This document shows positions 1 through 14,578 of a stretch of DNA of 14,578 nucleotides, one piece after another. The translations under genes and the position numbers were made by a program. Under the pieces are notes generated by a model, which was given only the letters and a program-made list of their open reading frames with translations, was not told the origin of the DNA and did no database searches. Position 1 is the stretch's first letter. Every line of letters starts with the position of its first letter. Source of the DNA: an uncultured candidate division Zixibacteria bacterium (GTDB taxonomy: Bacteria; Zixibacteria; MSB-5A5; GN15; FEB-12); contig CALCCW010000021.1 in assembly GCA_937900185.1 (NCBI GenBank), forward strand, positions 1-14,578. Direction: 5' to 3'.

Positions 1-14
1 CGCTCTTCAGATCT
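1..14. other. Probable Illumina adapter remnant at the contig 5' end. The sequence CGCTCTTCaGATCT is the reverse complement of AGATCGGAAGAGCG with 1 mismatch.
   Basis: Direct read of the first 14 nt. It matches the TruSeq adapter 3' end apart from one base. It mirrors the perfect adapter found at the 3' end of the window. Confidence 0.5.
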
Positions 15-892
15 AGCCCCGAAGTATCGGCATTATCTATGATTTCAAAAGAAGCCAAAAGTGATTTAACTGAATCAGCCAAACTGTCAATTATCATAAT
101 TGTAGTGTCAGAGTAAAAAGCAGTAAGAGGTATACTAAGATGACATCCGGTTACATTACATGTTGCAAAGTATTGTTGTGATGTGTTTTTATCTTCTAAC
201 CTGAATGTATGTTCGGCAAATATATATCCCTGTCCTGCTCCAAAACCACTACCATAATGACATTTTATACATCCATTTGTTGTATGGGGATTTGCTTCAG
301 GGGCTTCTATATTTATAAAATATCCATTTCTTCCGCTGATAACATCAGCTTGAGGTGATACATGAGGACCAAAATTTTCATCCAAAATTATAGTACTGCC
401 GCTGCCGACATCTTGGGTTGCTGAATGACAATGAGCACAAGAATTTGAAAGCCCTAAATTTGCTCCTAAACCGCTTACAAAACCTATCGTACCGCCGGCT
501 CGCAATGTATCCAAATTCCAAGCACCATATTCTCCGGTATGAGGAAGATGACAGGTAAAACAATTTATTGCTGAATATGCTTTTATTGATGTAATAGACG
601 AATCCACAATCTTTAAGAATCCTTCGTGGGTATGACATTTTGTACAAGAAACATCCATAATATCTAAATCTAAAAGAGCATAATTGGCATGAGCAGAATT
701 ATCAAACTGACCCCTCGGGCGAAGCAAAAGGTTATCTGTGTCATTGTGACAGTCAAAACAACCAACCCCCAAGGTTGAATCAGTCATGATAATCGTATTA
801 TTCTCAGTTACTAAAGTGTCACAACCTACTTGCAGCATAATTGCGATAAATGTCATAAGTATTATAAACGGGGTAATTTTACGAAAATTCAT
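2..892 (-). CDS. Multihaem c-type cytochrome, 3'-truncated at the window edge. The N-terminus carries a signal peptide and a possible lipobox.
   Basis: Manual reverse-complement translation from ATG (rc) at 890-892 begins MNFRKITPFIILMTFIAIMLQVGC. No minus-strand stop (tta/cta/tca) occurs in this frame down to nt 2, so the ORF runs off the window. This explains its absence from the ORF track. Five canonical CxxCH haem-binding motifs are present: CFDCH, CTKCH, CFTCH, CAHCH and CIKCH. There is one CX4CH motif (CNVTGCH). The track ORF 378..647 is an out-of-frame shadow of this gene. Confidence 0.8.
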   Translation of the reverse strand, partial: MNFRKITPFIILMTFIAIMLQVGCDTLVTENNTIIMTDSTLGVGCFDCHNDTDNLLLRPRGQFDNSAHANYALLDLDIMDVSCTKCHTHEGFLKIVDSSITSIKAYSAINCFTCHLPHTGEYGAWNLDTLRAGGTIGFVSGLGANLGLSNSCAHCHSATQDVGSGSTIILDENFGPHVSPQADVISGRNGYFINIEAPEANPHTTNGCIKCHYGSGFGAGQGYIFAEHTFRLEDKNTSQQYFATCNVTGCHLSIPLTAFYSDTTIMIIDSLADSVKSLLASFEIIDNADTSGLDLKS

Positions 893-1099
893 CTGTGCGT
901 CCTCTACAATATCTTTCTTTAAGAAATATTAAGAATTCATTACTACTTATATAACCTTAGATAGCATCTGTGTCAATTTTTTTTATCAATCATATAAAAT
1001 GCTGATACTATCATATTTTCAATTATTTCAATAAGTTAAACTAAACTTGGTGAAGTATCTTCATTCATTGTTTCAAAATTGAACAGTTTGAGCTGTTTT

Positions 1100-1130
1100 T
1101 TGAATTCTGTTTGGCTCATTTAAGTAAATT
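1100..1130 (+). promoter_or_regulatory. Candidate sigma70-type promoter for the SPFH/zinc-ribbon cassette: -35 TTGAAT, ~19-nt spacer, -10-like TAAATT.
   Basis: Sequence read only. TTGAAT lies at 1100-1105 and TAAATT at 1125-1130. The site is in the 300-bp divergent intergenic region upstream of the ATG at 1193. The spacer length is not ideal. Confidence 0.2.
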
Positions 1131-1192
1131 AAGAAATGAGAAAAAATGCCGAAAATAAAAGAAAAATATGAAATTGAATAGAGGAGACTATT

Positions 1193-2317
1193 ATGTCATT
1201 ATTATTAGAAGTAATTGAATGGATGGACCCATCCGGCGATGAAATGATTTACCGTATTCCGCAGGAAGGTTCTGCCGATTTTAAGTTAGGTGCTCAACTT
1301 ATAGTACGAGATAGTCAAATGGCTTTCTTTTTCAAAGATGGGCATGCTGCCGATACATTTACGACCGGACGGCATACGCTTTCGACATTAAACGTTCCCA
1401 TTTTGACCAGATTACTGGCTTTCCCATTTGGTTTTAATTCACCATTTCGTGCAGAATGTTATTTTATAAATTTAAAAACGTACACCGATATGAAATGGGG
1501 TACAAAAAATCCGGTTACATTTAAAGACAGTAAACTTGGTTTGATTCGTTTGCGTGGTCATGGTGCTTTTACAATGAAAATTAAAGAACCGATTCTATTT
1601 TTAAATTCTATTGTTGGTCGTCAAGCAAAATTTACAACTTCTGAAATTCAAGATTATCTTCGTGATGTTATTATCGCACGTATGAATGATATGCTTGGTG
1701 AGAAACTCGATACGATTTTAGATCTCCCGTCAATCTATACCGAACTTGCCGAAGATTTTAAAGAATTAGTCAGCTCTGAATTTGAAAAATATGGTTTAGA
1801 ACTTGTAGATTTTTATATCTCTTCAATCACTCCTCCTGAAGAAGTAACCAAAATGATTGACCAGCGTTCCGGTATGGAAGCTGTTGGCGATTTAGATAAG
1901 TTCCTCAAATTTGAACTGGCTAAAGGGTTTGGAGGCACAAGTGGCTCAGGTTCTGCCGGAGCAAATATGGGGATGGCAGCCGGTATTGGTATGATGGTAC
2001 CTTCTATGATGCAAAAAGTATATTCACCGGATCAAACCGAATTAAAACGTGAACCGGTTGCTACTGTTACCTGTCCAAAATGTCATACCGACACACCCGA
2101 ACAGTCTCGTTTTTGTTACCGATGCGGTCATCAGATGATTGTACAAAATATCTGTCCTGCCTGTCAGAGTTCACTTCCGTCAGAAGCAAAATTCTGCTTT
2201 GAATGCGGTTTGAAGCTTGATGTGAAAACAACCTGTCCGCATTGTTCGGCTGAACTAATTGCAGGTTCCAAATTTTGCGGCGAATGTGGTAAGAATATAG
2301 ATGGCGATAATAGCTAA
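1193..2317 (+). CDS. SPFH/band-7-like protein of the YdjI/COG4260 type with a Gly/Met-rich linker and three tandem C-terminal zinc ribbons (zinc_ribbon_2-like)
   Basis: A strong RBS (AGAGGAG) sits 7 nt upstream of the ATG. The N-terminal ~240 aa ([21 protein letters not shown]...[17 protein letters not shown]...[14 protein letters not shown]...) resemble the COG4260 family of SPFH-domain proteins with a C-terminal Zn-ribbon, recalled from memory. [25 protein letters not shown] linker follows. The C-terminus has three ~28-aa repeats, each CPxC-x9-FCxxCG. The family assignment is from memory, not a search. Confidence 0.65.
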
Positions 2318-3701
2318 AAAAGAAATAAAAGGATTCCGTATCGGTGTCAGCTGCCCCGGATGCGGGGGAGAACTGGAACTTGAGGATAATTTTTTTGCTG
2401 TTGAGTGTCATCATTGCGGTTCTGCTCTTAGGCTAATAATGCCCGATGCTCCGCCTACTTTTGTTGCCGAAGTACAAATTACAAAACAGAAAGCCAGATA
2501 TGCGATTGACCGGTATCTCAAAGATGCCGGTAAACCGCTTACGCATTCAGATTATCAACTCAAACGGATGTATTACCCTTACTGGAAAGTTGATGCGATA
2601 CTTTTTCGACTCAGAAAGGGTGTTGAAAAAAAAGTTGTATCTTCTGAGTATTCTGATGATAATGAAAAAACGTACGAAACAGAAAAAATTGATATTTCTC
2701 TTTCACCGTACACTACAACACTTACTGCCGGAATGAACTATGACGGACTGCCTGATACTTTGGGGCTTCGCTCTGAATATCTCAAACTTTTCCCTTTATC
2801 TGATGAAAAAATTGACGAGAACTTTGATTTGCTGCCTATTATAAAATCATGGGAAGAAGTCAGAAAATCTCTCCATCAACATTTGGGAGCGATAAGCTCA
2901 TTTGATACAAATCTCTTTGGAGTAAATAAAACTGATATCTATGGACCTAAAGCAATGCTTCTGTATTTTCCATTTTTTCTTTTTGATTTTTATGATACCG
3001 ATGGATTTAATCGTTTTGTTATAGATGGTGTTACCGGTCGAGTGTTAAATCATATTACTTCTTTGGAGTTAGCCCCATCGGAGACATCTGAAACAGAAAA
3101 AATCACTTTGGGCGAAATATCTATTGTCTCACATCGATGCAGCAACTGCGGAGAAGATTTACCGTCGGAAGAATCATTGGTGTACATCTGTAAAAACTGT
3201 CAGGTTATAACAGATTTAGAACCCGGCGTTGAAATAGACACAATTCGGCAAGTAGTGCATCCGGTCAATCCTAATAACATCTTGGTACCATTTTGGGCAT
3301 TTAAAATAAAAGATATTGATGAATCTGTGTTAAAATCTATTTTTGGCGGTATATATCGGTCTGACAAAGTAGTTATTCCGGCTTTTCGGGTTCAAAACTA
3401 TAATGCTATTTTTAAACTAAGCAAAAGAATGTCCGCTGCCTTTCCTCAATTTGATTTTGAAAATATAATCACTATGGATAGACAATATGCTCCGGTGGAT
3501 TTACCGTTAAACGAAGCTCAGGTACTTACCGAAGTATTTGTAACAACCGATCAATATAAAAAAAATATCACTCATAAAAAGACAGAAAATCATTTTCAAT
3601 TTGATGATATAACTCTTTTTTATGCTCCCTTTCATTTGGAAAGTTATTTCTATGTCGATTCAGTTTTGCAGGCAGTAACTTTTGAAAAAAACCTCATTTA
3701 A
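2301..3701 (+). CDS. Internally duplicated zinc-ribbon protein of unknown function, translationally coupled to the upstream SPFH-like gene
   Basis: The start overlaps the upstream stop by 17 nt (ATGGCGATAATAGCTAA). An N-terminal CPGCGG-x15-CHHCG ribbon opens the first half. A second ribbon, CSNCG-x12-CKNC (residues ~280-300), opens a second half. The halves share hydrophobic motifs: [12 protein letters not shown] vs [12 protein letters not shown], and [16 protein letters not shown] vs [17 protein letters not shown]. There is no obvious TM helix and no recognised catalytic motif. Confidence 0.6.
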
Positions 3702-4070
3702 TATTCCTCTGACTTAGTAAACAAAACAGACGATAATTTTAGTTTTCAAATTGAGCCGTCAGGAACCCATTCCTGACATGAATTGTAGAGAACAGGCATG
3801 CCTCAACCCTACAAAAATAAGCTGAACAGCAGAAAATTTGGAACTAATTGCCTCCTATGTAGTAGAATTCACAACATCCCAAAACTGCCATTTATTTCAC
3901 TTGCGATTGCACTTGCAATTACCTATTTTTGAGCGTGTAAAAATGAATTTTAAGGATAAAAAATAATTATTAATATACCGTATTCCATCTTTTTAACTAT
4001 TTCTCCAAGTCATACTGAATTTGTTGAAGTATGTTCATGTTAAATACGGTATTTTTATATGGAGTGAAGA

Positions 4071-6704
4071 GTGTACAGATATTACAAACTATTGTTACTC
4101 ATCGTAACCGTTTTTCTTTATCTGCCGGTAGTCGGGTTTGCCGATATACCGGAATTTTTTGACCAACCCGATTCTGGCTATACAACCAATGTTGTGACAG
4201 ATATTATTACTCACGATAGTGCCATCTGGTTTGCCACCGATGAAGGGTTGAACTTTTCTTATGACGGCGGACAATCCTGGTTGTTATATGATAACAGTAA
4301 CGGATTAGTCTCCTCATCTATTTCAGCTTTATTTTCATTGCCATCTCGGTTTGGACAAAGAATTTGGGCAGCAACCAACCATCAGGAAAATATCGGAGGA
4401 GTCATTACCGGAATTTCCGATGGTGTTTCATACTCAGACGACAGCGGTCTCACATGGACTCAGGTTGATTTTGAGACTGCTCCAAATGACATTCCTTATG
4501 TATGGGGTGGAGACAGAACTATTTTTGATATTACCGGTCATTATGACCCAAACAATGACTCCTTGGACAATTGGGTGTTCTTTACTGCTTTTGCAGGCGG
4601 CTTTTTAGCCTCGCGTGACGGCGGTGAAAGTTGGAAACGAATTTTTCCTACCGTTGCAGATTCTATTCAATTTGAGGTTCCTAATGCTCAACCGTCTTTA
4701 CGAAATAGATACTTCTCCTGTGTTGCCGATACATCGCATGGCGATACTCTTATAGTATGGGCTGGGACTGCCGGCGGTATTTTTCAATATGTTTTTGCAG
4801 AACCCAAAGATAAACCGTTTACCAAACATGTGACCGATATAGAATTTTGTGACAGTTGTGGAACAGGAGATTCAAGTTTTGTTTATTATGGCGGATTAGA
4901 AGGATTTACTCGTGGTAATAAATTAACCGGTCTTGCTGTCAGTAAATTTATATCAGATGGTCTACTGGGAAGTCAAATAACATCAATGCTTGATTTTGGC
5001 GGTAAACTTTTCGTTGGTACTGCAGCTAGTGCTGATGACTACACTTCAAAAGGTCTTGCTGTTTCAACAGACTTTGGTGAGAGCTTTACTGCCACATATA
5101 ATCAACCTGCTTTTGAAGGTGCCGGACATAGAATTTCAGATTTTGCGGTTATGAATGACCGAATATATATGGCTCTTGAAGAAAATGGTTTGTATGTTTC
5201 CAATGACACCGGAGCGAACTGGAACTATGTTATAATAGACACCCTTGATACTACTCCTGACAATCGCCGTAATGTTGTAAATGCTTTAGAAGCTGTCGGA
5301 GACACTCTCAACATTGGTACCGACTCCGGGTTGGTCAGGCTGTATCTTTCCGCATCGGGAGCAGTCGACTCCTCACTGCAATTTGTTTTCCCAAGCAATT
5401 CAACATCCTCAACAAAAATTATCAAGGTAAAAACTCAACCATTAAGTAATGGTGATGTCAGGTTATGGACAGTCAATGTTCCTCTTGATACCGTACTTAA
5501 TCTTGCTACTGCTATAACATCATATTCACTTGACGGAGGTCAAACATTCCTGCCGCGATTTAATGTAAACGGACTTAACAGAAACATTGGTTTTATTGGT
5601 GATACAGCAGTTATCATTGGTGACTACGGTACGGTATATACAGATATCGGCGGTGTTTTGCCGTCAGAATCATTCCCGATATATCAAAAAGTTCCTCTTT
5701 CTGTAGATACTTTAACTAACGATACAACTTTTGTCGTTCTTGATTCACTAAATGCCGATTCGTTAACTTCTATAAAAATAAAAGGTGATACTGTAATTGT
5801 CGGTGGCAACAAAGGCTATGCTGTTTCTTTAGACAGAGGTAGCTCTTTTAATATTACCAGAGTAAATACAGAGTTTCTTGCTGCTGATTTTGTATTGAAT
5901 TATACATCTGCCATTCAAGGTATTGACGGTGATTGGGTTCCTGCTTTGGAAGTAGAATATAATGATTCATTTGTTTTTGCCCGTGTTTGGGCATCAGTTA
6001 GACCTACCTTTGGTGGTGTTCCGGGTATTTCGGTTAGTTGGGCTGCACCTGTTGTAGATACATTAGGTGATACTTTAAGATATGAAAGATTATGGGGGAG
6101 AGTACATGATGAATTTGCATGGAATTTCGCCCTTGCTTCTGATACTATATTTGCCGCAACAGATAACGGTCTAATATATGGCATAACAGATTCTCTCCTT
6201 TTTGGTGATATTACCTATGATTGGACAACAGTTGAAATGCTTGATTCAACAGGTGCATCGCTTCTATTAGAAGGTACTCCGGTATATGCGGTAGAAGTTG
6301 ATGACAACTATATATGGGCTGGCACAGGTGACAGAACAGTGAGGATTGATCGTTCAGACCTTACATTATCAAAAGCATTTTATGTCGAAGACCCTACTGA
6401 TGAAGTGTACGCCTTTCCAATTCCATTTAGTCATGCTAACTCAAATAGACTTGATTTTCATTTTATTGTAAAACAGCAGGCAGCTATTACTATTGAAATT
6501 TATGATTTTGCCATGCATTTGGTTAAACGTGTTGTAGACAATGTTACCTACGACCCGGGAATCTATCCGACCGCCGGTGCAAGCAGACATGTTTGGGATG
6601 GCTTAAACGGCAAAGGCGATGAGGTCGCTGTCGGGATGTATTACTTTAAAATTATATATTCAACCGGTGAAGTTCACTGGGGTAAAATTGCGGTTATTCC
6701 ATAA
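4071..6704 (+). CDS. Secreted BNR/Asp-box repeat (beta-propeller) protein with a T9SS-type C-terminal sorting domain
   Basis: GTG start with GGAG RBS 6 nt upstream. An upstream in-frame ATG at 4059 is followed immediately by a stop. The signal peptide is VYRYYKLLLLIVTVFLYLPVVGFA. Multiple Asp-box motifs (S-x-D-x-G-x-T/S-W/F) are present: SYDGGQSW, SDDSGLTW, SRDGGESW, STDFGESF, SNDTGANW, SLDGGQTF, SLDRGSSF. The C-terminal ~95 aa (AFPIPFS...ITIEIYDFAMHLV...WDGLNGKGDEVAVGMYYFKIIYSTGEVHWGKIAVIP) match the T9SS type-A / FlgD Ig-like sorting-domain pattern. Confidence 0.8.
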   Translation: MYRYYKLLLLIVTVFLYLPVVGFADIPEFFDQPDSGYTTNVVTDIITHDSAIWFATDEGLNFSYDGGQSWLLYDNSNGLVSSSISALFSLPSRFGQRIWAATNHQENIGGVITGISDGVSYSDDSGLTWTQVDFETAPNDIPYVWGGDRTIFDITGHYDPNNDSLDNWVFFTAFAGGFLASRDGGESWKRIFPTVADSIQFEVPNAQPSLRNRYFSCVADTSHGDTLIVWAGTAGGIFQYVFAEPKDKPFTKHVTDIEFCDSCGTGDSSFVYYGGLEGFTRGNKLTGLAVSKFISDGLLGSQITSMLDFGGKLFVGTAASADDYTSKGLAVSTDFGESFTATYNQPAFEGAGHRISDFAVMNDRIYMALEENGLYVSNDTGANWNYVIIDTLDTTPDNRRNVVNALEAVGDTLNIGTDSGLVRLYLSASGAVDSSLQFVFPSNSTSSTKIIKVKTQPLSNGDVRLWTVNVPLDTVLNLATAITSYSLDGGQTFLPRFNVNGLNRNIGFIGDTAVIIGDYGTVYTDIGGVLPSESFPIYQKVPLSVDTLTNDTTFVVLDSLNADSLTSIKIKGDTVIVGGNKGYAVSLDRGSSFNITRVNTEFLAADFVLNYTSAIQGIDGDWVPALEVEYNDSFVFARVWASVRPTFGGVPGISVSWAAPVVDTLGDTLRYERLWGRVHDEFAWNFALASDTIFAATDNGLIYGITDSLLFGDITYDWTTVEMLDSTGASLLLEGTPVYAVEVDDNYIWAGTGDRTVRIDRSDLTLSKAFYVEDPTDEVYAFPIPFSHANSNRLDFHFIVKQQAAITIEIYDFAMHLVKRVVDNVTYDPGIYPTAGASRHVWDGLNGKGDEVAVGMYYFKIIYSTGEVHWGKIAVIP

Positions 6705-6714
6705 TTAAGGAGAG

Positions 6715-7707
6715 ATGGTAATGAAAAAAATATTATTATTTGCAGTTCTGACATTATTCTGTCTGTCAACATCTCTCTTAGCTGAAGATGGTGATGCAGG
6801 TTATGCCGGCAGTTTTTTACAAGTTCCAATTGGTGCCAGACCGACAGCAATGGGTGGTGCATTTATTTCTATTTCAAATGATGCCTCCGGAAGTTTTTAT
6901 AATCCTGCCGGGATGTCTATAATCAAAAAATCAATTTTTGCTACTTCTTATAGAGCTATGCAGCTTGATAGAAAACTTGGATACACGGCGATTCTATTTC
7001 CGACTCAAGGAAATTCAGTTCTTGGATTTAGCTGGCTTTATGCCGGTTCGGGATCAGTAGATGCTCGAAATGATGATGGTGATTTATTAGGGAATACGTT
7101 AGAACAAAATAATCACCAAATTTCTATTCTGTTCTCAAAAAGATTTGAAAAATATTTATCTTTAGGATTTAAAGGTTCTTATTTGTACTCTAAGTTTGCT
7201 GAAATGTCTGTCTTTTCTGTTGGTATTGATTTAGGAGCAACTTTATATATAAGCCGGTTGTTCAGCAGAGAAAAAAGAGATTTAATGTCTATTCAGGATA
7301 TACAAGTTGGGCTTGTCGTGAGAAATTTAGCAGCTAATTTTAAGTGGAATAATGATAATTATTTGGCTGCACATAGCGGATCTGCTTTTGGAGGTTCTGA
7401 TCATATTGATGATTTCCCTGTAGAAATCGGCATTGGCGGTTCAGCAAGATTTTTTAATAGAAAACTTTTATTGAGTTCAGATATTGTGAAAAACAGCAAA
7501 GAAAATATTATTCTACATGCCGGAGGAGAATATTTTATTACCAAACAATTTGCTGCTCGTGTAGGATATACCGATAGAAGCTTGACTACCGGATTTGGCT
7601 ATGTTTTTAATTTAGATAAATTTGGCTTAGTGTTTGACTATGCCTATTCATCAGAAAAAGTTGGTGAAGGTTCGGAACATATATTTTCATTTGACATATT
7701 ATTTTAA
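6715..7707 (+). CDS. Outer-membrane beta-barrel protein of the FadL-like PorV/PorQ family, probably T9SS-associated
   Basis: AAGGAG RBS. The signal peptide is MVMKKILLFAVLTLFCLSTSLLA. The N-terminal motif IGARPTAMGGAFISISNDASGSFYNPAGM matches the FadL/PorV-family signature (GLGRAYSGEGA.ADDAS....NPA). The protein ends in Phe (FDILF), as is typical of OM barrels. It lies immediately downstream of the T9SS cargo gene. Confidence 0.6.
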   Translation: MVMKKILLFAVLTLFCLSTSLLAEDGDAGYAGSFLQVPIGARPTAMGGAFISISNDASGSFYNPAGMSIIKKSIFATSYRAMQLDRKLGYTAILFPTQGNSVLGFSWLYAGSGSVDARNDDGDLLGNTLEQNNHQISILFSKRFEKYLSLGFKGSYLYSKFAEMSVFSVGIDLGATLYISRLFSREKRDLMSIQDIQVGLVVRNLAANFKWNNDNYLAAHSGSAFGGSDHIDDFPVEIGIGGSARFFNRKLLLSSDIVKNSKENIILHAGGEYFITKQFAARVGYTDRSLTTGFGYVFNLDKFGLVFDYAYSSEKVGEGSEHIFSFDILF

Positions 7708-7716
7708 AGGTGAAAA

Positions 7717-8610
7717 ATGAATAATTTGAAAATTGCAATTCTCATTGTGACTCTCCTGTCAGTCGGTCAGATTTCTGCCCAAGATGGGTTAGCCTTGCTG
7801 CAGACAGCACAAGGTGCTAAACAAGCAGGGTTTGGAGAGGCTGTTGTATCTCTTGCAAACCAAGTAAATGGGACCCATTATAATCCTGCCAATATGATAT
7901 CTATTGACAAGTTTACCGCATCGTTTGGACATACTGAATACTGGGAAAATATTAATTTAGAGTCAGGTTTTTTTGCCGCTCCTCTTACATCTAAAGTAAA
8001 TCTACATGGCGGTATCCGTTTTGCCGCTGTGAATGAACTGGAAAATAGAACTCGTGCTACCGAAGAACCTATTAGTTTATTTGACTTTCATGATATATCT
8101 TTCAAAACAGGACTTACGTATGTTAAGAGTGAAAAACTCTCTTTTGGTTTTGCTTTTGGATGGTTTTTTGAAAAAAATGAACTTTGGAACGGTTCTGCTT
8201 TTAATGTCGATTTAGGAATGCATTATCAAGCATCTCCAAACATTCAACTTGGGGCTGCTGTGACAAATCTTGGTTCCTCGTTTCAATTGACAGCTGATGG
8301 TCAAGAAAGTTCTAACGATATTTCTCTTCCCACAAGGTATTCCGTCGGCGGCAGCTATCAATATAATAAATTTATCGGAGCAATTGATGCTGTAATTATC
8401 AACGATGATTTTAAACTGCATGTTGGTACAGAAGCACATTTGCATGAGATGTTTGACGTTCGTGCCGGATATATGTTTAACTATGACAGTAAGGATTTTT
8501 CTGTCGGGGCAACTTTTACAAAACGAAATATTAAAATAGATTATGCATTTGTACCGTATTCTAATAATTTAGGATCGACACATCTGTTTAATTTCACATT
8601 CAGCATATAA
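7717..8610 (+). CDS. Second FadL-like PorV/PorQ-family outer-membrane beta-barrel protein, a paralog of the upstream gene
   Basis: AAAGGTGA RBS. The signal peptide is MNNLKIAILIVTLLSVGQISAQ. The N-terminal motif QGAKQAGFGEAVVSLANQVNGTHYNPANM and the C-terminal region (DVRAGYMFNYD...DYAFVPYS) parallel the upstream protein. The gap to the previous gene is 9 nt. Confidence 0.55.
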   Translation: MNNLKIAILIVTLLSVGQISAQDGLALLQTAQGAKQAGFGEAVVSLANQVNGTHYNPANMISIDKFTASFGHTEYWENINLESGFFAAPLTSKVNLHGGIRFAAVNELENRTRATEEPISLFDFHDISFKTGLTYVKSEKLSFGFAFGWFFEKNELWNGSAFNVDLGMHYQASPNIQLGAAVTNLGSSFQLTADGQESSNDISLPTRYSVGGSYQYNKFIGAIDAVIINDDFKLHVGTEAHLHEMFDVRAGYMFNYDSKDFSVGATFTKRNIKIDYAFVPYSNNLGSTHLFNFTFSI

Positions 8611-8636
8611 AATCTTTTTAGGAGTGTTATAAGATT

Positions 8637-9755
8637 ATGGCAAAATACAAAATCGCCTGGCTGCCCGGTGACGGTGTCGGCAATGAAGTTTTGGAAGCAG
8701 CAAAAATAGTCCTCGATAAATTAGAACTTGATGCCGAGTACATTCATGGCGATATAGGCTGGGAATTCTGGAAAACTGAAGCAAATCCGCTTCCTGATAG
8801 AACTATCGACCTTATGAATAATACTGATTGTGCTTTGTTTGGTGCGATTACTTCTCTGCCAAAGGAAGAAGCCGAAAATGAACTTATTCCCGAACTGCAG
8901 GGGAAAGGACATGTATATGCATCGCCGATTGTCAGGCTCAGACAAGAGTTTAATCTCGCAACAAACTTACGTCCGTGTAAGGCATATATCGGAAACCCTC
9001 TGAACTATAGAGATGATATCGATATAGTTGTTTTTAGAGAAAACACTGAAGGGCTCTATGTCGGTTTAGAATTTCATCCGCTTCCTCAAGAATTACGTGA
9101 CTCTATACATAAATATAACAAAAAAATGGCTCGCTTTGACAAAGTTGCCAATGAAGATTTGGCGATTTCTATGCGTATTTTCTCTCGTGAAGGATGCCGT
9201 TCTATTGTGACAGATGCTTTTGAATATGCTAAAAAAACAGGACGGAAATCTGTCACGGTTGTTGAAAAACCAAATGTCATCAGAGAAACATCAGGGCTCA
9301 TGGTTCGCACAGCTCGTGAAGTTGCTAAAAACTACCCCGGTATTGAACTTTGGGAAACAAATATCGATGCTATGTGTATGTGGCTTGTAAAAAATCCGCA
9401 GAATTATTCTGTCATCGCAACATCAAATATGTTTGGTGATATTGTCTCAGACCTATGTGCCCAACTAATTGGTGGTTTAGGTTTTGCGTCATCGGGCAAT
9501 ATCGGTGAAAAATATGCAGTCTTTGAACCAACTCACGGTTCTGCTCCAAAATATGCAGGTCAATACAAAGTCAATCCTATGGCGACACTTTTGACTGTCA
9601 AAATGATGCTGGACTGGCTTGGCGAAACTGAAATGGCTCAAAAACTTGAAACTGCTATCTCTGAAGTTATTGCTGAGAAAAAAGTACGCACCTACGATAT
9701 GGGCGGTTCCAATACGACCCTTGAAATTGGCGAGGCTGTCGCAGCAAAACTGTAG
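8637..9755 (+). CDS. Isocitrate/isopropylmalate dehydrogenase superfamily enzyme, most similar to isocitrate/homoisocitrate dehydrogenase
   Basis: TAGGAG RBS. N-terminus is IAWLPGDGVGNEV. Central region is RLRQEFNLATNLRPCKAY...DIVVFRENTEGLY (compare E. coli Icd ALRQELDLYICLRPVRYY...MVIFRENSEDIY). Metal/substrate loop is NMFGDIVSDLCAQLIGGLGFASSGNIG (compare IDH NLYGDILSD...GGLGLAPSANIG). Confidence 0.85.
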   Translation: MAKYKIAWLPGDGVGNEVLEAAKIVLDKLELDAEYIHGDIGWEFWKTEANPLPDRTIDLMNNTDCALFGAITSLPKEEAENELIPELQGKGHVYASPIVRLRQEFNLATNLRPCKAYIGNPLNYRDDIDIVVFRENTEGLYVGLEFHPLPQELRDSIHKYNKKMARFDKVANEDLAISMRIFSREGCRSIVTDAFEYAKKTGRKSVTVVEKPNVIRETSGLMVRTAREVAKNYPGIELWETNIDAMCMWLVKNPQNYSVIATSNMFGDIVSDLCAQLIGGLGFASSGNIGEKYAVFEPTHGSAPKYAGQYKVNPMATLLTVKMMLDWLGETEMAQKLETAISEVIAEKKVRTYDMGGSNTTLEIGEAVAAKL

Positions 9756-9785
9756 ATATTTAAGGATACTAAATATATATAATCC

Positions 9786-9821
9786 AAGCAGGTTGAATTT
9801 ATTTCAACCTGCTTTTTTATT
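9786..9821. terminator. Bidirectional Rho-independent terminator between convergent genes
   Basis: Stem AAGCAGGTTGAA (9786-9797), loop TTTATT, stem TTCAACCTGCTT (9804-9815). TTTTTTAT follows on the plus strand and an A/T-rich run follows on the minus strand. The stem overlaps the rdgB stop codon (9804-9806). Confidence 0.7.
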
Positions 9822-10409
9822 TAACCTATTTATAATCAGAGTACGGACTTCCTGAAGTGCCAACCCTCTATGAGATATTATATTTTTCTCTTCAATGGTC
9901 ATCTCTGAAAATAGTTTTTGTGATTGCGGGTAGAAAAAAATCGGGTCATACCCAAAACCATCTCTATCGTCTATAGATTCCGCTATGAAGCCCTCAGCTA
10001 TGCCGTCGACGGTTTCAGTAGTAGACTCATCCCAACAGATAGTCATCACACAGCGGAATCGTGCCGTTCGTTTCTCAATAGGAATGTTTTTTAAATCATC
10101 AATAAGCTTTTTGCTATTATCTGTATAAGTTACATTTTCTCCGGCGTAGCGGGATGAGTAAACCCCCGGAGCTCCACTTAAGGCATCTACTTCAAGTCCG
10201 GTGTCGTCTGCCAAGGCGGGGAGACCGGTAAATTCATAAATTGCTTTTGCCTTAAGCAGAGAATTTTCTTCAAGAGTTGTGCCGGTTTCTTCAATATCGG
10301 GAAACTCTAAAAAATCATCACGAGTCATAATAGTGATAGGCAGGTCATCCAAGAGATTTTTCATCTCTTTAATTTTGTCTTGATTATTGGTAGCTAATAC
10401 AAGCTGCAT
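9804..10409 (-). CDS. rdgB: Non-canonical purine NTP pyrophosphatase (dITP/XTP pyrophosphatase, RdgB/Ham1 family)
   Basis: Begins MQLVLATNNQDKIKEMK. C-terminal region reads ...DGFGYDPIFFYPQ...TIEEKNIISHRGLAL, which are classic Ham1/RdgB motifs. Length is 201 aa. Confidence 0.9.
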   Translation of the reverse strand: MQLVLATNNQDKIKEMKNLLDDLPITIMTRDDFLEFPDIEETGTTLEENSLLKAKAIYEFTGLPALADDTGLEVDALSGAPGVYSSRYAGENVTYTDNSKKLIDDLKNIPIEKRTARFRCVMTICWDESTTETVDGIAEGFIAESIDDRDGFGYDPIFFYPQSQKLFSEMTIEEKNIISHRGLALQEVRTLIINRLNKKAG

Positions 10410-10917
10410 AATTTGTCTATTCCAATTTTAGTTTTTTCTTTAATCATAAATTAGTAGTAAACGGATGATATACGCAATCATTTTTTGTAAATTTTTCCGC
10501 AATAGTCATTGCGAACGGAGTCCGCAATTAGCGGAAGAAGTGTGGTAATCTTATTTTTGAGACCTGCACTTATTCCACTTCCATACAAGGAAATGACAAT
10601 TTTAAAAATATTAAAAGCAGAATGAGCATCCTTTCCGCCTTGGCGGACTCAGTAGGGGACAAGCAGCCTGTTCCTCTAAGACAGCCTCAATGCCCTGTCA
10701 GAACACAAATGGAAATGTTGAGGCATGCCTCAACCCTACAATTGTTTCCCCGAGGAATTAAGGGGTGAGTTTATTTTCATAGTGTTAGGGCTGGACTTCG
10801 TGTCAAGCACGGAGATGAGTTCAAGAGATAGAGATGTCTGGTTTCTCTCAATTATACTTTTTTAGAAGCGGAACCGAGACCTACTATTTTATAAATGGAA
10901 GTGTATATCATGATTTA

Positions 10918-11757
10918 TTAGTATCTGCTAATATCGACTCTGGTGATATTGATGATTTCTCTGCCCATGAAACGTGATGCGACCGATGAAAACTTTTCGG
11001 GAACATCTGATACAAAATATTTTAAATCTCCTTCAGGAGCAGGAACTTGAGAACTATAAGGATGTAACAACTCCATGGTTGTGATTTTTCTAAACGATTC
11101 TTTGGCAGTTTCTTCACCGGAATCAATTAACTTTACATTGTCACCCATAATCTCGGTGATGATATTTTTGAGTAGAGGATAATGGGTACAACCTAAAACT
11201 AAAGTATCAATGCCGACATCAATCATAGTCTGTAAATAATCGCGGGCAATCATATATGTCGCCTCTTTGTCAATATATCCCTCCTCAACAAGGGGAACAA
11301 AAAGAGGACAGGCTAAAGAGAATACTTTCAACAGTGGGTCAATTTCATGAATAAAACTTGCATAAGCATTTGAGTTGATCGTTGCATTGGTTCCGATGAT
11401 TCCGATTTTCCCGTTTTTGGTTTCTTCAGCAGCAGCCTTTGCTCCGGGTTCGATAACTCCGACTATTTTAATATCAGTATCTTTTTGAATCTCCGGTAAT
11501 GCTGTTGATGATGCTGTATTGCAGGCACAGATTATAAATTTAACTTTTTGTTCTGAGAGGAAAGCGATGTCTTGTTTTGTAAATTGTGTTATAATTTCTT
11601 TTGATCGTCCGCCGTATGGGGTCCGTCCAACATCACCGAAATACACAAAATTTTCAAACGGGAGTAATGCAATAATCTCTTTTAAGACAGTTAAGCCTCC
11701 GACTCCCGAGTCAAATATTCCTATTGGTGCTGTGCGGTCATTGTGTAATGTATCCAT
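10918..11757 (-). CDS. murI: Glutamate racemase
   Basis: IGIFDSGVGGLTVL, the CNTAS catalytic Cys motif and the GCTHYPLL second catalytic Cys motif are all present. Length is 279 aa. The gap to the upstream amidase gene is 6 nt. Confidence 0.95.
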   Translation of the reverse strand: MDTLHNDRTAPIGIFDSGVGGLTVLKEIIALLPFENFVYFGDVGRTPYGGRSKEIITQFTKQDIAFLSEQKVKFIICACNTASSTALPEIQKDTDIKIVGVIEPGAKAAAEETKNGKIGIIGTNATINSNAYASFIHEIDPLLKVFSLACPLFVPLVEEGYIDKEATYMIARDYLQTMIDVGIDTLVLGCTHYPLLKNIITEIMGDNVKLIDSGEETAKESFRKITTMELLHPYSSQVPAPEGDLKYFVSDVPEKFSSVASRFMGREIINITRVDISRY

Positions 11758-11763
11758 TTGAAA

Positions 11764-13248
11764 TTAGTTGCTTTCGTATTTTGATTTGAATCTTTTGATT
11801 GCTTTATAGACAGATTTTGCAACTTCTTTTTGGTACTTTTTGCTTTTAAGAAGTTTTTCTTCTCTTTTGTTCGAAATGAACCCTGTTTCTAAAAGAACCG
11901 ATGGAGCGTAGACTTTATTTAAGACAAAAAAGCCTGCTTGGTCAACACCTCTTGCTGGAATTTGTAGATTTTTGCGAAACTCTCTATCAACCATAACGGC
12001 GAAGTCATGTGATTCTGTTTGGAACTCGGTCATAATCATTTCATTTATGATACCTAAAATAGGGTCATTAAAGTCAATCATTGGAGTAGTCTCTGTTGAA
12101 CTTTCCGGTTCTTGGTCTCTTAAGAAAGCAGAGTTTTCAAATTGTGCAACCGAGCGTGCAGAATCATTTTTTGCCTGAGCCAAAAAGAAAACATTCCATC
12201 CTCTGACATGTGTTTTCGGCGATGCGTTGGCATGAATTGAGATGAACAAATCACATGCGGACTGGTTGGCAATTTTTGCCCGTTCCTCAAGGGTCATAGT
12301 TTTATCTCGGTCACGAGTCATAATGACTTTGAACTGTTTATCTTTCCGAATGAGTTTGGCAAGTTCTTTGGCAATGGCAAGTGACACATCTTTTTCACGA
12401 ATATTTTTCTGCCCGACAGCACCATAGTCGTTACCACCGTGTCCGGCATCTATGACAATAATATCAATCTTCTTATCAGGTCCGATAGTTGTTTGGGAGT
12501 CGTTTGGGTCCATCTCAAAGTCGGTATCAGCAATAGAAATCTGAATTCGGGAAGGGTTGTTTTGCAGTTTATGATGCCATTTATTGATTTTTCTCTTTAA
12601 GCGAATTGAAATTTGTCCGGTACTGTTTTGCTGATGTGTCTTCAGCTTATACATATATTTGGAGTTCATTCGAGATTGAATTTGAGAACGGTTTAACCTG
12701 CCGTTACGAATTGAAATATTTATCCAGTTTCCCTCGGTAACAAAAATATCATACGCCAATGCGGATGTAAGAAATACTTCCAAAAGAAGTCCGTTTGCTT
12801 TATTGGTACAAGAGATATCAGTTACATTAAAATATTCTGAATTGATACGAATTGTTTTGTTTGTTTTGTCCCAAACAACTTTTTGAAAAATAACTTCATC
12901 CCAAAATCGTATAAATGTCTCGGCAGGCAAAAAGAGTTTACCTTTTTTATAAACAGACGGGTATGTCATGTTAAGCAAAGAATTATTACGCTTGAAATAT
13001 GGTGAGCCTATCACAAATTCAAACCTGTTCGTATCTTCAACAAATTGAATCGTTTGTCCGAGTGATTTCCAATCAAGAGTTCCGCCGACTAATTCTACTA
13101 TTTCGGAAAAGGAAACATAATGTATATCATCTTTTTTAAATGAATCTATCTTTTCTTCAGCACCTGAAATCAGCAAGGTAACGTCTTTTGCCATAGAAAC
13201 ATTAGGGAGCAAGAGAAGTATTAATATAAGAGCAATATATTTACGCAT
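11764..13248 (-). CDS. N-acetylmuramoyl-L-alanine amidase (Amidase_3 family, AmiC-like) with an N-terminal targeting/AMIN-like region
   Basis: Signal peptide is MRKYIALILILLLLPNVSMA. The C-terminal catalytic domain begins IIVIDAGHGGNDYGAVGQ...KDVSLAIAKELAKLI...ISIHANA. It is followed by EFRKNLQIPARGVDQAGFFVLNKVYAPSVLLETGFISN, typical of MurNAc-LAA domains. Confidence 0.85.
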   Translation of the reverse strand: MRKYIALILILLLLPNVSMAKDVTLLISGAEEKIDSFKKDDIHYVSFSEIVELVGGTLDWKSLGQTIQFVEDTNRFEFVIGSPYFKRNNSLLNMTYPSVYKKGKLFLPAETFIRFWDEVIFQKVVWDKTNKTIRINSEYFNVTDISCTNKANGLLLEVFLTSALAYDIFVTEGNWINISIRNGRLNRSQIQSRMNSKYMYKLKTHQQNSTGQISIRLKRKINKWHHKLQNNPSRIQISIADTDFEMDPNDSQTTIGPDKKIDIIVIDAGHGGNDYGAVGQKNIREKDVSLAIAKELAKLIRKDKQFKVIMTRDRDKTMTLEERAKIANQSACDLFISIHANASPKTHVRGWNVFFLAQAKNDSARSVAQFENSAFLRDQEPESSTETTPMIDFNDPILGIINEMIMTEFQTESHDFAVMVDREFRKNLQIPARGVDQAGFFVLNKVYAPSVLLETGFISNKREEKLLKSKKYQKEVAKSVYKAIKRFKSKYESN

Positions 13249-13253
13249 ATATT

Positions 13254-13718
13254 TTATAAATCTTTCTTTAAGGCAGATTTAATTTTTCGGGCAGCATCTG
13301 CTTTAGCGATGACCTCACGTTTATCATACTTCTTACGTCCAATAGCCAGGGAGAGTTCGATTTTAAATACTTTACCTTTTAAATAAATAGAAAGAGGAAT
13401 CAGGGTCATCCCTTTTTGTTCAGTTTTAGCTTTGAGTTTACGTATCTCTCTTTTATGAAGCAGTAATCTTCGGATTCGCAGAGGATCATGATTGTTCTCG
13501 TTTGACATTTTATATGGAGAAATATGCAGATTTTTCAGCAAAACTTCTCCATTGTTAATTTCTGCATAGGCATCACTGATATTAACTTTACCGTCACGCA
13601 TAGATTTAACTTCACTTCCCAAAAGAGAAATTCCGACCTCAAGAGTAGCGGTGATTTCGTAATCATGTCTTGCCTTACGGTTTCGGACAATTATTTTATG
13701 TTTCTCAGACTGATTCAT
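13254..13718 (-). CDS. smpB: SsrA-binding protein
   Basis: IIVRNRKARHDYEI...LLGSEVKS...LLLHKREI are characteristic SmpB motifs. Length is 154 aa. The stop lies 5 nt before the amidase start, indicating an operon. Confidence 0.95.
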   Translation of the reverse strand: MNQSEKHKIIVRNRKARHDYEITATLEVGISLLGSEVKSMRDGKVNISDAYAEINNGEVLLKNLHISPYKMSNENNHDPLRIRRLLLHKREIRKLKAKTEQKGMTLIPLSIYLKGKVFKIELSLAIGRKKYDKREVIAKADAARKIKSALKKDL

Positions 13719-13877
13719 ACCGACAGAATAGGATTTTTCAGCCGATTTTGCAATTAAAAAGAGCTAAATCATTATGAAAGATATAGTTAATTTACTGTTA
13801 ACTGTTTACAGCAATATGTCGATACTTATTAATGATGATAGTAAGTATCAATGTTCCTTGTAGATAAGGGGGAAAGT

Positions 13878-14276
13878 ATGACTGCTAATGAAGCGAAACA
13901 AAAACGTATTTTGATAATAGATGATGATGAGGTAATTACCGGTTTGATTCAGACTCTCTTGTCAAAAGAAGGGTATACTGTTTATACTGCGAATAATGGT
14001 CTTGATGGCGAAAAAATGGCTTTAGAGAATAAACCGCATCTCATTTTTATGGATATTAGTATGCCGGAACAAGATGGCTATGAAACAACAGAAAAAATAA
14101 AAAATTATCCTGAATTACGTGAAATCCCGATTGTCTTTTTAACCGGGCAATCTGCCGGTGAAGATAAAGGAAGAGCGTTTGCCAAGGGGGGAACCTCTTT
14201 TATATGTAAACCATTTGCCAATCAACAGCTTATAAGTTTAACAACATTGATTCTTGAAACTGTTCAAGTTGATTAA
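13878..14276 (+). CDS. Single-domain CheY-like response regulator (receiver domain only)
   Basis: A GGGGGAAAG RBS favours the internal ATG at 13878 (MTANEAK...) over the track start at 13851. Receiver residues are the acidic pocket IIDDDE, the phospho-acceptor in FMDISMP, Thr in FLTGQ, and Lys in CKPF. No output domain is present. Confidence 0.85.
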   Translation: MTANEAKQKRILIIDDDEVITGLIQTLLSKEGYTVYTANNGLDGEKMALENKPHLIFMDISMPEQDGYETTEKIKNYPELREIPIVFLTGQSAGEDKGRAFAKGGTSFICKPFANQQLISLTTLILETVQVD

Positions 14277-14337
14277 GGTTTTTAATAAAGAAGTCGATAT
14301 AGTTTGCAGACACTAAAAAGAAAGAAATTACTAAGTT

Positions 14338-14406
14338 ATGTCATATAAACTTGACTTAAATACAGCCAAGATTTTCATCGTTGATGATGAACCGGAAATT
14401 ACTGAA
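14338..14406 (+). CDS. N-terminal fragment of a second receiver-domain response regulator, truncated by the adapter junction
   Basis: MSYKLDLNTAKIFIVDDEPEITE is a typical REC N-terminus. The reading frame then runs straight into the Illumina adapter at 14407, so the downstream residues and the stop are artefactual. Confidence 0.55.
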
Positions 14407-14464
14407 AGATCGGAAGAGCGTCGTGTAGGGAAAGAGTGTAGATCTCGGTGGTCGCCGTATCATT
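14407..14464. other. Illumina TruSeq universal adapter (reverse complement): non-biological contamination
   Basis: Exact 58-nt match to AGATCGGAAGAGCGTCGTGTAGGGAAAGAGTGTAGATCTCGGTGGTCGCCGTATCATT. Confidence 0.97.
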
Positions 14465-14578
14465 AAAAAAAAAAGAAAAAGAGAAAGAGACAGAGAAAAA
14501 AAAAGAAAAGAAAAAAAAAGAGAGAAGAGTAGGAGTAAGAACTAGTCAATAATCGCGAAGCAGATTAACATGAGAACA
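14465..14578. other. Low-complexity poly(A)/AG-rich tail and unrelated sequence downstream of the adapter. It is not contiguous genomic sequence.
   Basis: The run AAAAAAAAAAGAAAAAGAGAAAGAGACAGAGAAAAAAAAAGAAAAG... sits directly after the adapter. This is typical of read-through junk or a chimeric join. Confidence 0.85.

Follow-up and report, generated by a model that had tools for sequence, protein, structure and literature searches.

The contig analysed here, 14,578 nt long in all and hereafter called the window, raises the same question at each of its ends: where does the DNA of the organism stop, and what is the sequence that lies beyond it? The initial annotation considered both ends to be artefactual. 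It identified positions 14407–14464 as an exact reverse complement of the Illumina universal adapter, followed by a low-complexity tail, and it suspected a second adapter remnant in the first 14 nt. Comparison with adapter references and with same-species contigs that extend across both junctions bears this out. It is close to certain (probability of about 0.98) that both termini consist of Illumina TruSeq adapter that escaped trimming and entered the contig with the outermost reads, and nothing of substance counts against this. The native sequence is that of positions 15–14406, and the ends are a well-known type of assembly contamination rather than a biological feature.

Adapter sequence at the two contig ends

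A scripted comparison set the window against TruSeq and Nextera adapter sequences. The reverse complement of the 58-nt TruSeq universal adapter (AATGATACGGCGACCACCGAGATCTACACTCTTTCCCTACACGACGCTCTTCCGATCT) is identical to the 3′ segment at 58 of 58 positions, as had been claimed. For a 58-mer, the number of such matches expected by chance on both strands of the window is ~3.5e-31. The first base of the segment, the A at 14407, is the A-tail base of the adapter. Since native DNA likewise has an A at this position, the library fragment ends at either 14406 or 14407.

At the 5′ end, window positions 1–14 (CGCTCTTCAGATCT) and the final 14 nt of the universal adapter (CGCTCTTCCGATCT) disagree at a single position, compared with two for the equivalent end of the index-side adapter. 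The base that discriminates between the two adapters at this end is nt 1, which is a C. At a fixed end, one mismatch or fewer has a probability of 1.6e-7, which rises to ~6e-7 when both ends and both adapters are considered. The 14-mer belongs to the universal adapter arm also present at the 3′ end, of which it is the ligation end in forward orientation, and not to the index adapter. The earlier suspicion of an adapter-like 5′ end was therefore well founded (13 of 14 positions agree), while the proposal that it represents the other adapter end did not hold, as nt 1 assigns it to the universal arm.

Both copies are terminal, and both have their ligation (T-overhang) end against the insert: …CTTCAGATCT directly precedes the insert at the 5′ end, and AGATCGGAAG… directly follows it at the 3′ end. 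Hence, the ligation ends of the two copies (…GATCT and AGATC…) point at the native insert, as they do in a library molecule. When the whole window was scanned with AGATCGGAAGAGCG, allowing up to two mismatches, the two terminal sites were the only matches, compared with 0.03 expected, and none of 200 shuffled sequences had two or more matches. No further 12-mers of the TruSeq or Nextera adapters were present elsewhere within the window.

The adapter at the 3′ end is followed by a tail of 114 nt (14465–14578) composed of 72 A, 25 G, 9 T, and 8 C. The tail opens with exactly 10 A and contains a purine-only run of 38 nt, whereas no such run in the 14.4 kb of native sequence exceeds 14 nt. The initial annotation described this tail as low in complexity, and its composition agrees, although over approximately the last 45 nt it moves from A/G-rich to a near-ordinary mixture of all four bases. 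A run of 10 A and then low-complexity calls is an off-template signature, and the same A10 occurs after adapter sequence in a contig of the same species (L010, below).

Independent assemblies extend across both junctions. An exact sequence look-up of the 141-aa receiver protein encoded at 13851–14276 led to three contigs with the same protein: L001 (ENA ERZ909563 k127_38873), L002 (NCBI GCA_011040975.1, DREA01000459.1), and L003 (Logan SRR7787658_97). Each of them follows the window with 100% identity as far as position 14407, where the agreement stops, and continues from there with ATAGTCGATACTTTT... In alignment, the three contigs read ...ACTGAAATAGTCGATACTTTTCTGACAGAACACGG... across the junction, versus ...ACTGAAAGATCGGAAGAGCG... 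in the window. The gene that continues past this point encodes a 133-aa single-domain response regulator (MSYKLDLNTAKIFIVDDEPEITEIVDTFLTEHGFQVL...STGKF; L001 3488–3889, PF00072).

Two contigs are informative at the 5′ junction. L004 (ENA ERZ909563 k127_189430), located via the neighbouring 374-aa SPFH/zinc-ribbon protein, corresponds to window 15–4231 with one mismatch and starts exactly at nt 15. L010 (ENA ERZ1742237 NODE_23177), which is from the same species, matches window 15–1273 at 99.84% identity. In place of window nt 1–14 it reads …CCGTATATGTC / AGCCCC… at the junction (marked by the slash). Read in the opposite direction, it continues as ...GGGGCT / GACATATACGGTT, and the encoded cytochrome as ...TSGL / TYTVGDTISQAQAEAYYNYLLFKNDRSRGIHN, in agreement with Zixibacteria homologues. 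Because L010 runs on in line with these homologues, nt 1–14 are not native. Accordingly, native continuation replaces the adapter segment in independent assemblies at the 3′ end (L001–L003) as well as the 5′ end (L010). An exact 40-nt scan of JGI metagenome contigs with window 31–70 gave no match.

The ENA MEGAHIT assembly of DRR093004 has two contigs at this locus, one equivalent to window 15–4231 and the other probably running from ~9363 onwards. The middle (approximately window 4232–9362) is unassembled there and is continuous in the window.

Native sequence on either side of the junctions

The adapter at the 3′ end creates a spurious reading frame. The forward-strand ORF at 14338–14466 reads MSYKLDLNTAKIFIVDDEPEITE / RSEERRVGKECRSRWSPYH and then stops, with 23 native codons and 19 adapter codons joined in frame for a total of 42 aa. 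Its TAA stop straddles the boundary between adapter and tail, with the T supplied by the final adapter base and both A's by the start of the tail. Neither this ORF nor its 23 native residues have a Pfam match at E ≤ 1, and in an exact look-up of the gene-position collection the 42-aa fusion was not recorded as a called gene product. A receiver domain (PF00072) spans ~110 aa and is absent from the 42-aa ORF, whereas the full-length native 133-aa gene in L001–L003 does carry one. Of this genuine PF00072 gene the window retains no more than the 23 N-terminal residues, so that the 42-aa ORF should not be filed as a response regulator. That it might be a real, short response-regulator-like peptide was considered and rejected. 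The translation and the three contigs, which have the 133-aa gene instead, confirm two statements of the initial annotation, i.e., that the adapter is fused in frame to a response-regulator N-terminus with a false C-terminus and stop, and that the apparent 42-aa response-regulator “protein” is not biological.

The native locus is a tandem of single-domain response-regulator genes (141 aa and 133 aa) that lie 61 nt apart (window 13851–14406, with L001 3001–4553). The upstream gene, at 13851–14276, is complete and encodes the 141-aa receiver protein (PF00072). The smpB gene lies divergently upstream of the pair, and in L001 and L002 the 133-aa gene is followed by a phasin-family gene (PHB_acc_N with or without Phasin).

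At the other end, the contig cuts a reverse-strand gene for a multihaem cytochrome c. The first ~290 residues hold five CXXCH motifs and one CX4CH motif for haem binding, with weak matches to Cytochrome_C7 and to MtrC/MtrF-like families that fall below the Pfam cut-offs. As read in the window, the ORF ends in four residues, D-L-K-S (nt 13–2), that are encoded by the adapter. In the Leu codon that precedes them (16–14), the third base alone comes from the adapter, and CTN specifies Leu regardless.

The initial annotation regarded the final residues of the cytochrome as non-biological, which is correct for DLKS, although the loss goes beyond a few final residues and the cut is not near the C-terminus. 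By comparison with its homologues, whose reading frames are ~630–790 codons from stop to stop, the gene is cut in the middle, at about residue 293. A scan of GTDB genomes with the 292 native residues returned five relatives with 31–64% identity, mostly from Candidatus Zixiibacteriota MAGs, and no contig of the same species. In four of these (L005–L008; 38–64% identical, from Candidatus Zixiibacteriota or FCB-group MAGs), the frames are 629–792 codons from stop to stop. Beyond the point of the window cut they continue as ...ADTSG(L/I/Q)(T/V/M)(Y/F)....YNYLL...D(R/G)S(R/K)GIHN..., followed by long C-terminal regions, versus ...ADTSGL / DLKS in the window. The fifth and most distant relative (31% identity) has a frame of only 351 codons. 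Finally, a protein search found P0001, a 486-aa protein that is encoded on L010 and is 100% identical across all 292 residues. Its precomputed Pfam annotation is a weak PKD-type match (PF18911). These cytochrome comparisons suggest a Zixibacteria-like marine organism as the source of the window. The features at the two ends are collected in Table 1.

Table 1. Features at the two ends of the window, with the evidence for each
Feature	Position	Strand	Evidence
Terminal 14-mer of TruSeq universal adapter (CGCTCTTCCGATCT), one mismatch (C9->A); not biological	1..14	.	L010 differs; L004 begins at nt 15
Native 5′ part of multihaem cytochrome c gene with 6 haem-binding motifs; ATG at 892-890; cut at fragment end	15..892	-	P0001, homologues
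Native first 23 codons (MSYKLDLNTAKIFIVDDEPEITE) of 133-aa single-domain response regulator, second of tandem pair	14338..14406	+	L001-L003
Spurious 42-aa ORF; 23 native and 19 adapter codons (RSEERRVGKECRSRWSPYH); TAA from adapter T and two tail A's	14338..14466	+	No Pfam match
Complete TruSeq universal adapter, reverse complement	14407..14464	+	58/58; L001-L003 identity stops at 14407
Exactly 10 A; would fit T10 spacer of surface-bound P5 oligo	14465..14474	+	Same A10 after P7 end in L010
Probable off-template base-calling junk, A/G-rich, mixed in ~last 45 nt	14475..14578	+	Composition, no significant matches

Several other features lie in the native interior. The 374-aa SPFH/Band-7 protein has C-terminal double zinc ribbons, and its gene overlaps by 17 nt with that of a 466-aa protein (window 1193–3701), whose only matches are to DUF7351 and, weakly, to a HypA-like zinc ribbon at the N-terminus. 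From this arrangement, the two genes look like an operon pair. An exact 21-nt direct repeat, AGGCATGCCTCAACCCTACAA, occurs at 3794–3814 and 10721–10741, with similarity confined to the 21 nt. Its copies sit in two long, ORF-free intergenic gaps (3702–4070 and 10410–10917), neither of which has an Rfam or tRNA/tmRNA match, and the second copy lies within a perfect 18-nt palindrome, GTTGAGGCATGCCTCAAC (10717–10734). The repeat may be bound by a protein, or may represent a short intergenic element present in more than one copy. Searches of the whole window with Rfam (at the gathering threshold and at E ≤ 1) and with ARAGORN yielded nothing relevant, and a single sub-threshold match to an L20 leader (E = 0.45).

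Origin of the terminal sequence

The terminal reads probably came from short inserts and ran through them into the adapter. At the 3′ end, a library fragment stopped at 14406 or 14407, where the read entered the complement of the universal adapter and passed through the whole of it (58/58). The A10 that comes next suggests that the read then crossed the ten T's by which the P5 oligo is tethered to the flow cell. Surface-bound P5 and P7 oligos with a T10 spacer are described in PMC11123353 and PMC13584795, which are third-party re-implementations and not Illumina documentation. From here the read probably kept calling bases without a template, to give the A/G-rich tail; phasing noise or bleed-through from a neighbouring cluster is a candidate origin for its last ~45 nt. 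With >172 non-native nt in one read, the read length would have been ~250–300 nt. Off-template calls that are A-rich, and not G-rich, suggest four-colour chemistry. At the 5′ end, a fragment stopped at window position 15 and the read retained 14 nt of the same adapter arm, and the one-base mismatch is likely a base-calling error. If the adapters were left untrimmed, or only partly trimmed, and no competing read followed the native path, the assembler would have kept the adapter tip.

Other origins can be envisaged for each part of the terminal sequence. An adapter-identical segment might truly reside in the DNA of the organism, as part of a laboratory construct or of horizontally acquired synthetic DNA. 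Beyond its presence in the contig nothing speaks for such an insertion, which verges on the impossible given that the response-regulator gene is intact and lacks the insertion in three assemblies of other data sets, that the segment is at the very end of the contig, and that the gene does not resume after it but gives way to A10 and junk. A chance resemblance is conceivable for nt 1–14 in particular, since only 14 nt are involved and one of them is a mismatch; the initial annotation had left this open. That these positions are genuine genomic DNA is nonetheless highly improbable. A match this close has a probability of ~6e-7 at a fixed contig end, L010 differs there and its extended ORF fits the homologues in a way that the DLKS of the window does not, L004 terminates exactly at nt 15, and the opposite end of the same contig bears a full adapter.

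Part of the tail, especially 14534–14578, might instead be real DNA from a second template, by way of a chimeric molecule or a mixed cluster. The replacement of A/G-only sequence by all four bases in the last ~45 nt would accord with this idea. However, BLAST of the tail against 50,697 phage records, performed in part with PhiX-type spike-in bleed-through in mind, produced chance matches of 25 nt (E = 0.3 for the best of them, in 2.3 Gb), a result that weighs little against a non-phage source. Only chance matches of 10–15 nt, none significant, were obtained in the native part of the window and in ten loci fetched for comparison. Moreover, the complete adapter and A10 mark where the library molecule physically ends; the tail comes after that point, where no ligated template is possible, and L010 has similar mixed junk after its own adapters. 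A second template is thus improbable; even if one were involved, the tail would remain technical in origin and say nothing about the biology of the organism. Untrimmed adapter with off-template calls behind it remains the preferred reading of the 3′ end.

Adapter contamination and its consequences for annotation

The contig ends resemble TruSeq universal-adapter read-through contamination in every respect compared: an exact adapter in terminal position, with its ligation end to the insert, poly-A and junk after it, and absence of the segment from independent assemblies. Contamination of this kind is screened for with UniVec/VecScreen, NCBI FCS-adaptor, and the adapter lists of cutadapt and Trimmomatic. 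In contrast to the usual case, the whole 58-nt adapter and 114 nt of off-template calls survived in the contig, which points to long reads with little or no trimming. A related problem is known from Oxford Nanopore data, where PMC13182109 deals with adapter and barcode contamination in GenBank, with synthetic library oligonucleotides left in deposited assemblies by incomplete trimming; both the platform and the oligonucleotides differ from those seen here.

Adapter-derived spurious peptides provide a second parallel. The 19-aa RSEERRVGKECRSRWSPYH of the window is what the reverse complement of the universal adapter encodes in frame 1. P0001 has a comparable C-terminus, ...RKSTRLNSSHIPLSRMPSSA, which corresponds to a translation of the TruSeq index adapter with index ATTCCTTT and represents the same class of artefact from a different arm. 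Unlike spurious peptides that have entered protein collections, the 42-aa fusion of the window is absent as a called gene from the collection searched. The ending of P0001 results from adapter contamination of L010 itself. At one end of this contig (2078–2161), the TruSeq index adapter with index ATTCCTTT is followed by A10 and junk, and an internal reverse-complement copy of the index adapter at 269–302 precedes ~268 nt of junk.

The value of these findings is for quality control only. Trimming of the contig to 15–14406 removes the false 42-aa protein, the false C-terminus and stop, and the four false cytochrome residues. It also stops the adapter from seeding spurious similarity matches or false joins of unrelated contigs. 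As the comparator L010 proved to be contaminated too, end-of-contig annotations in metagenome assemblies of this kind should be routinely screened for adapters.
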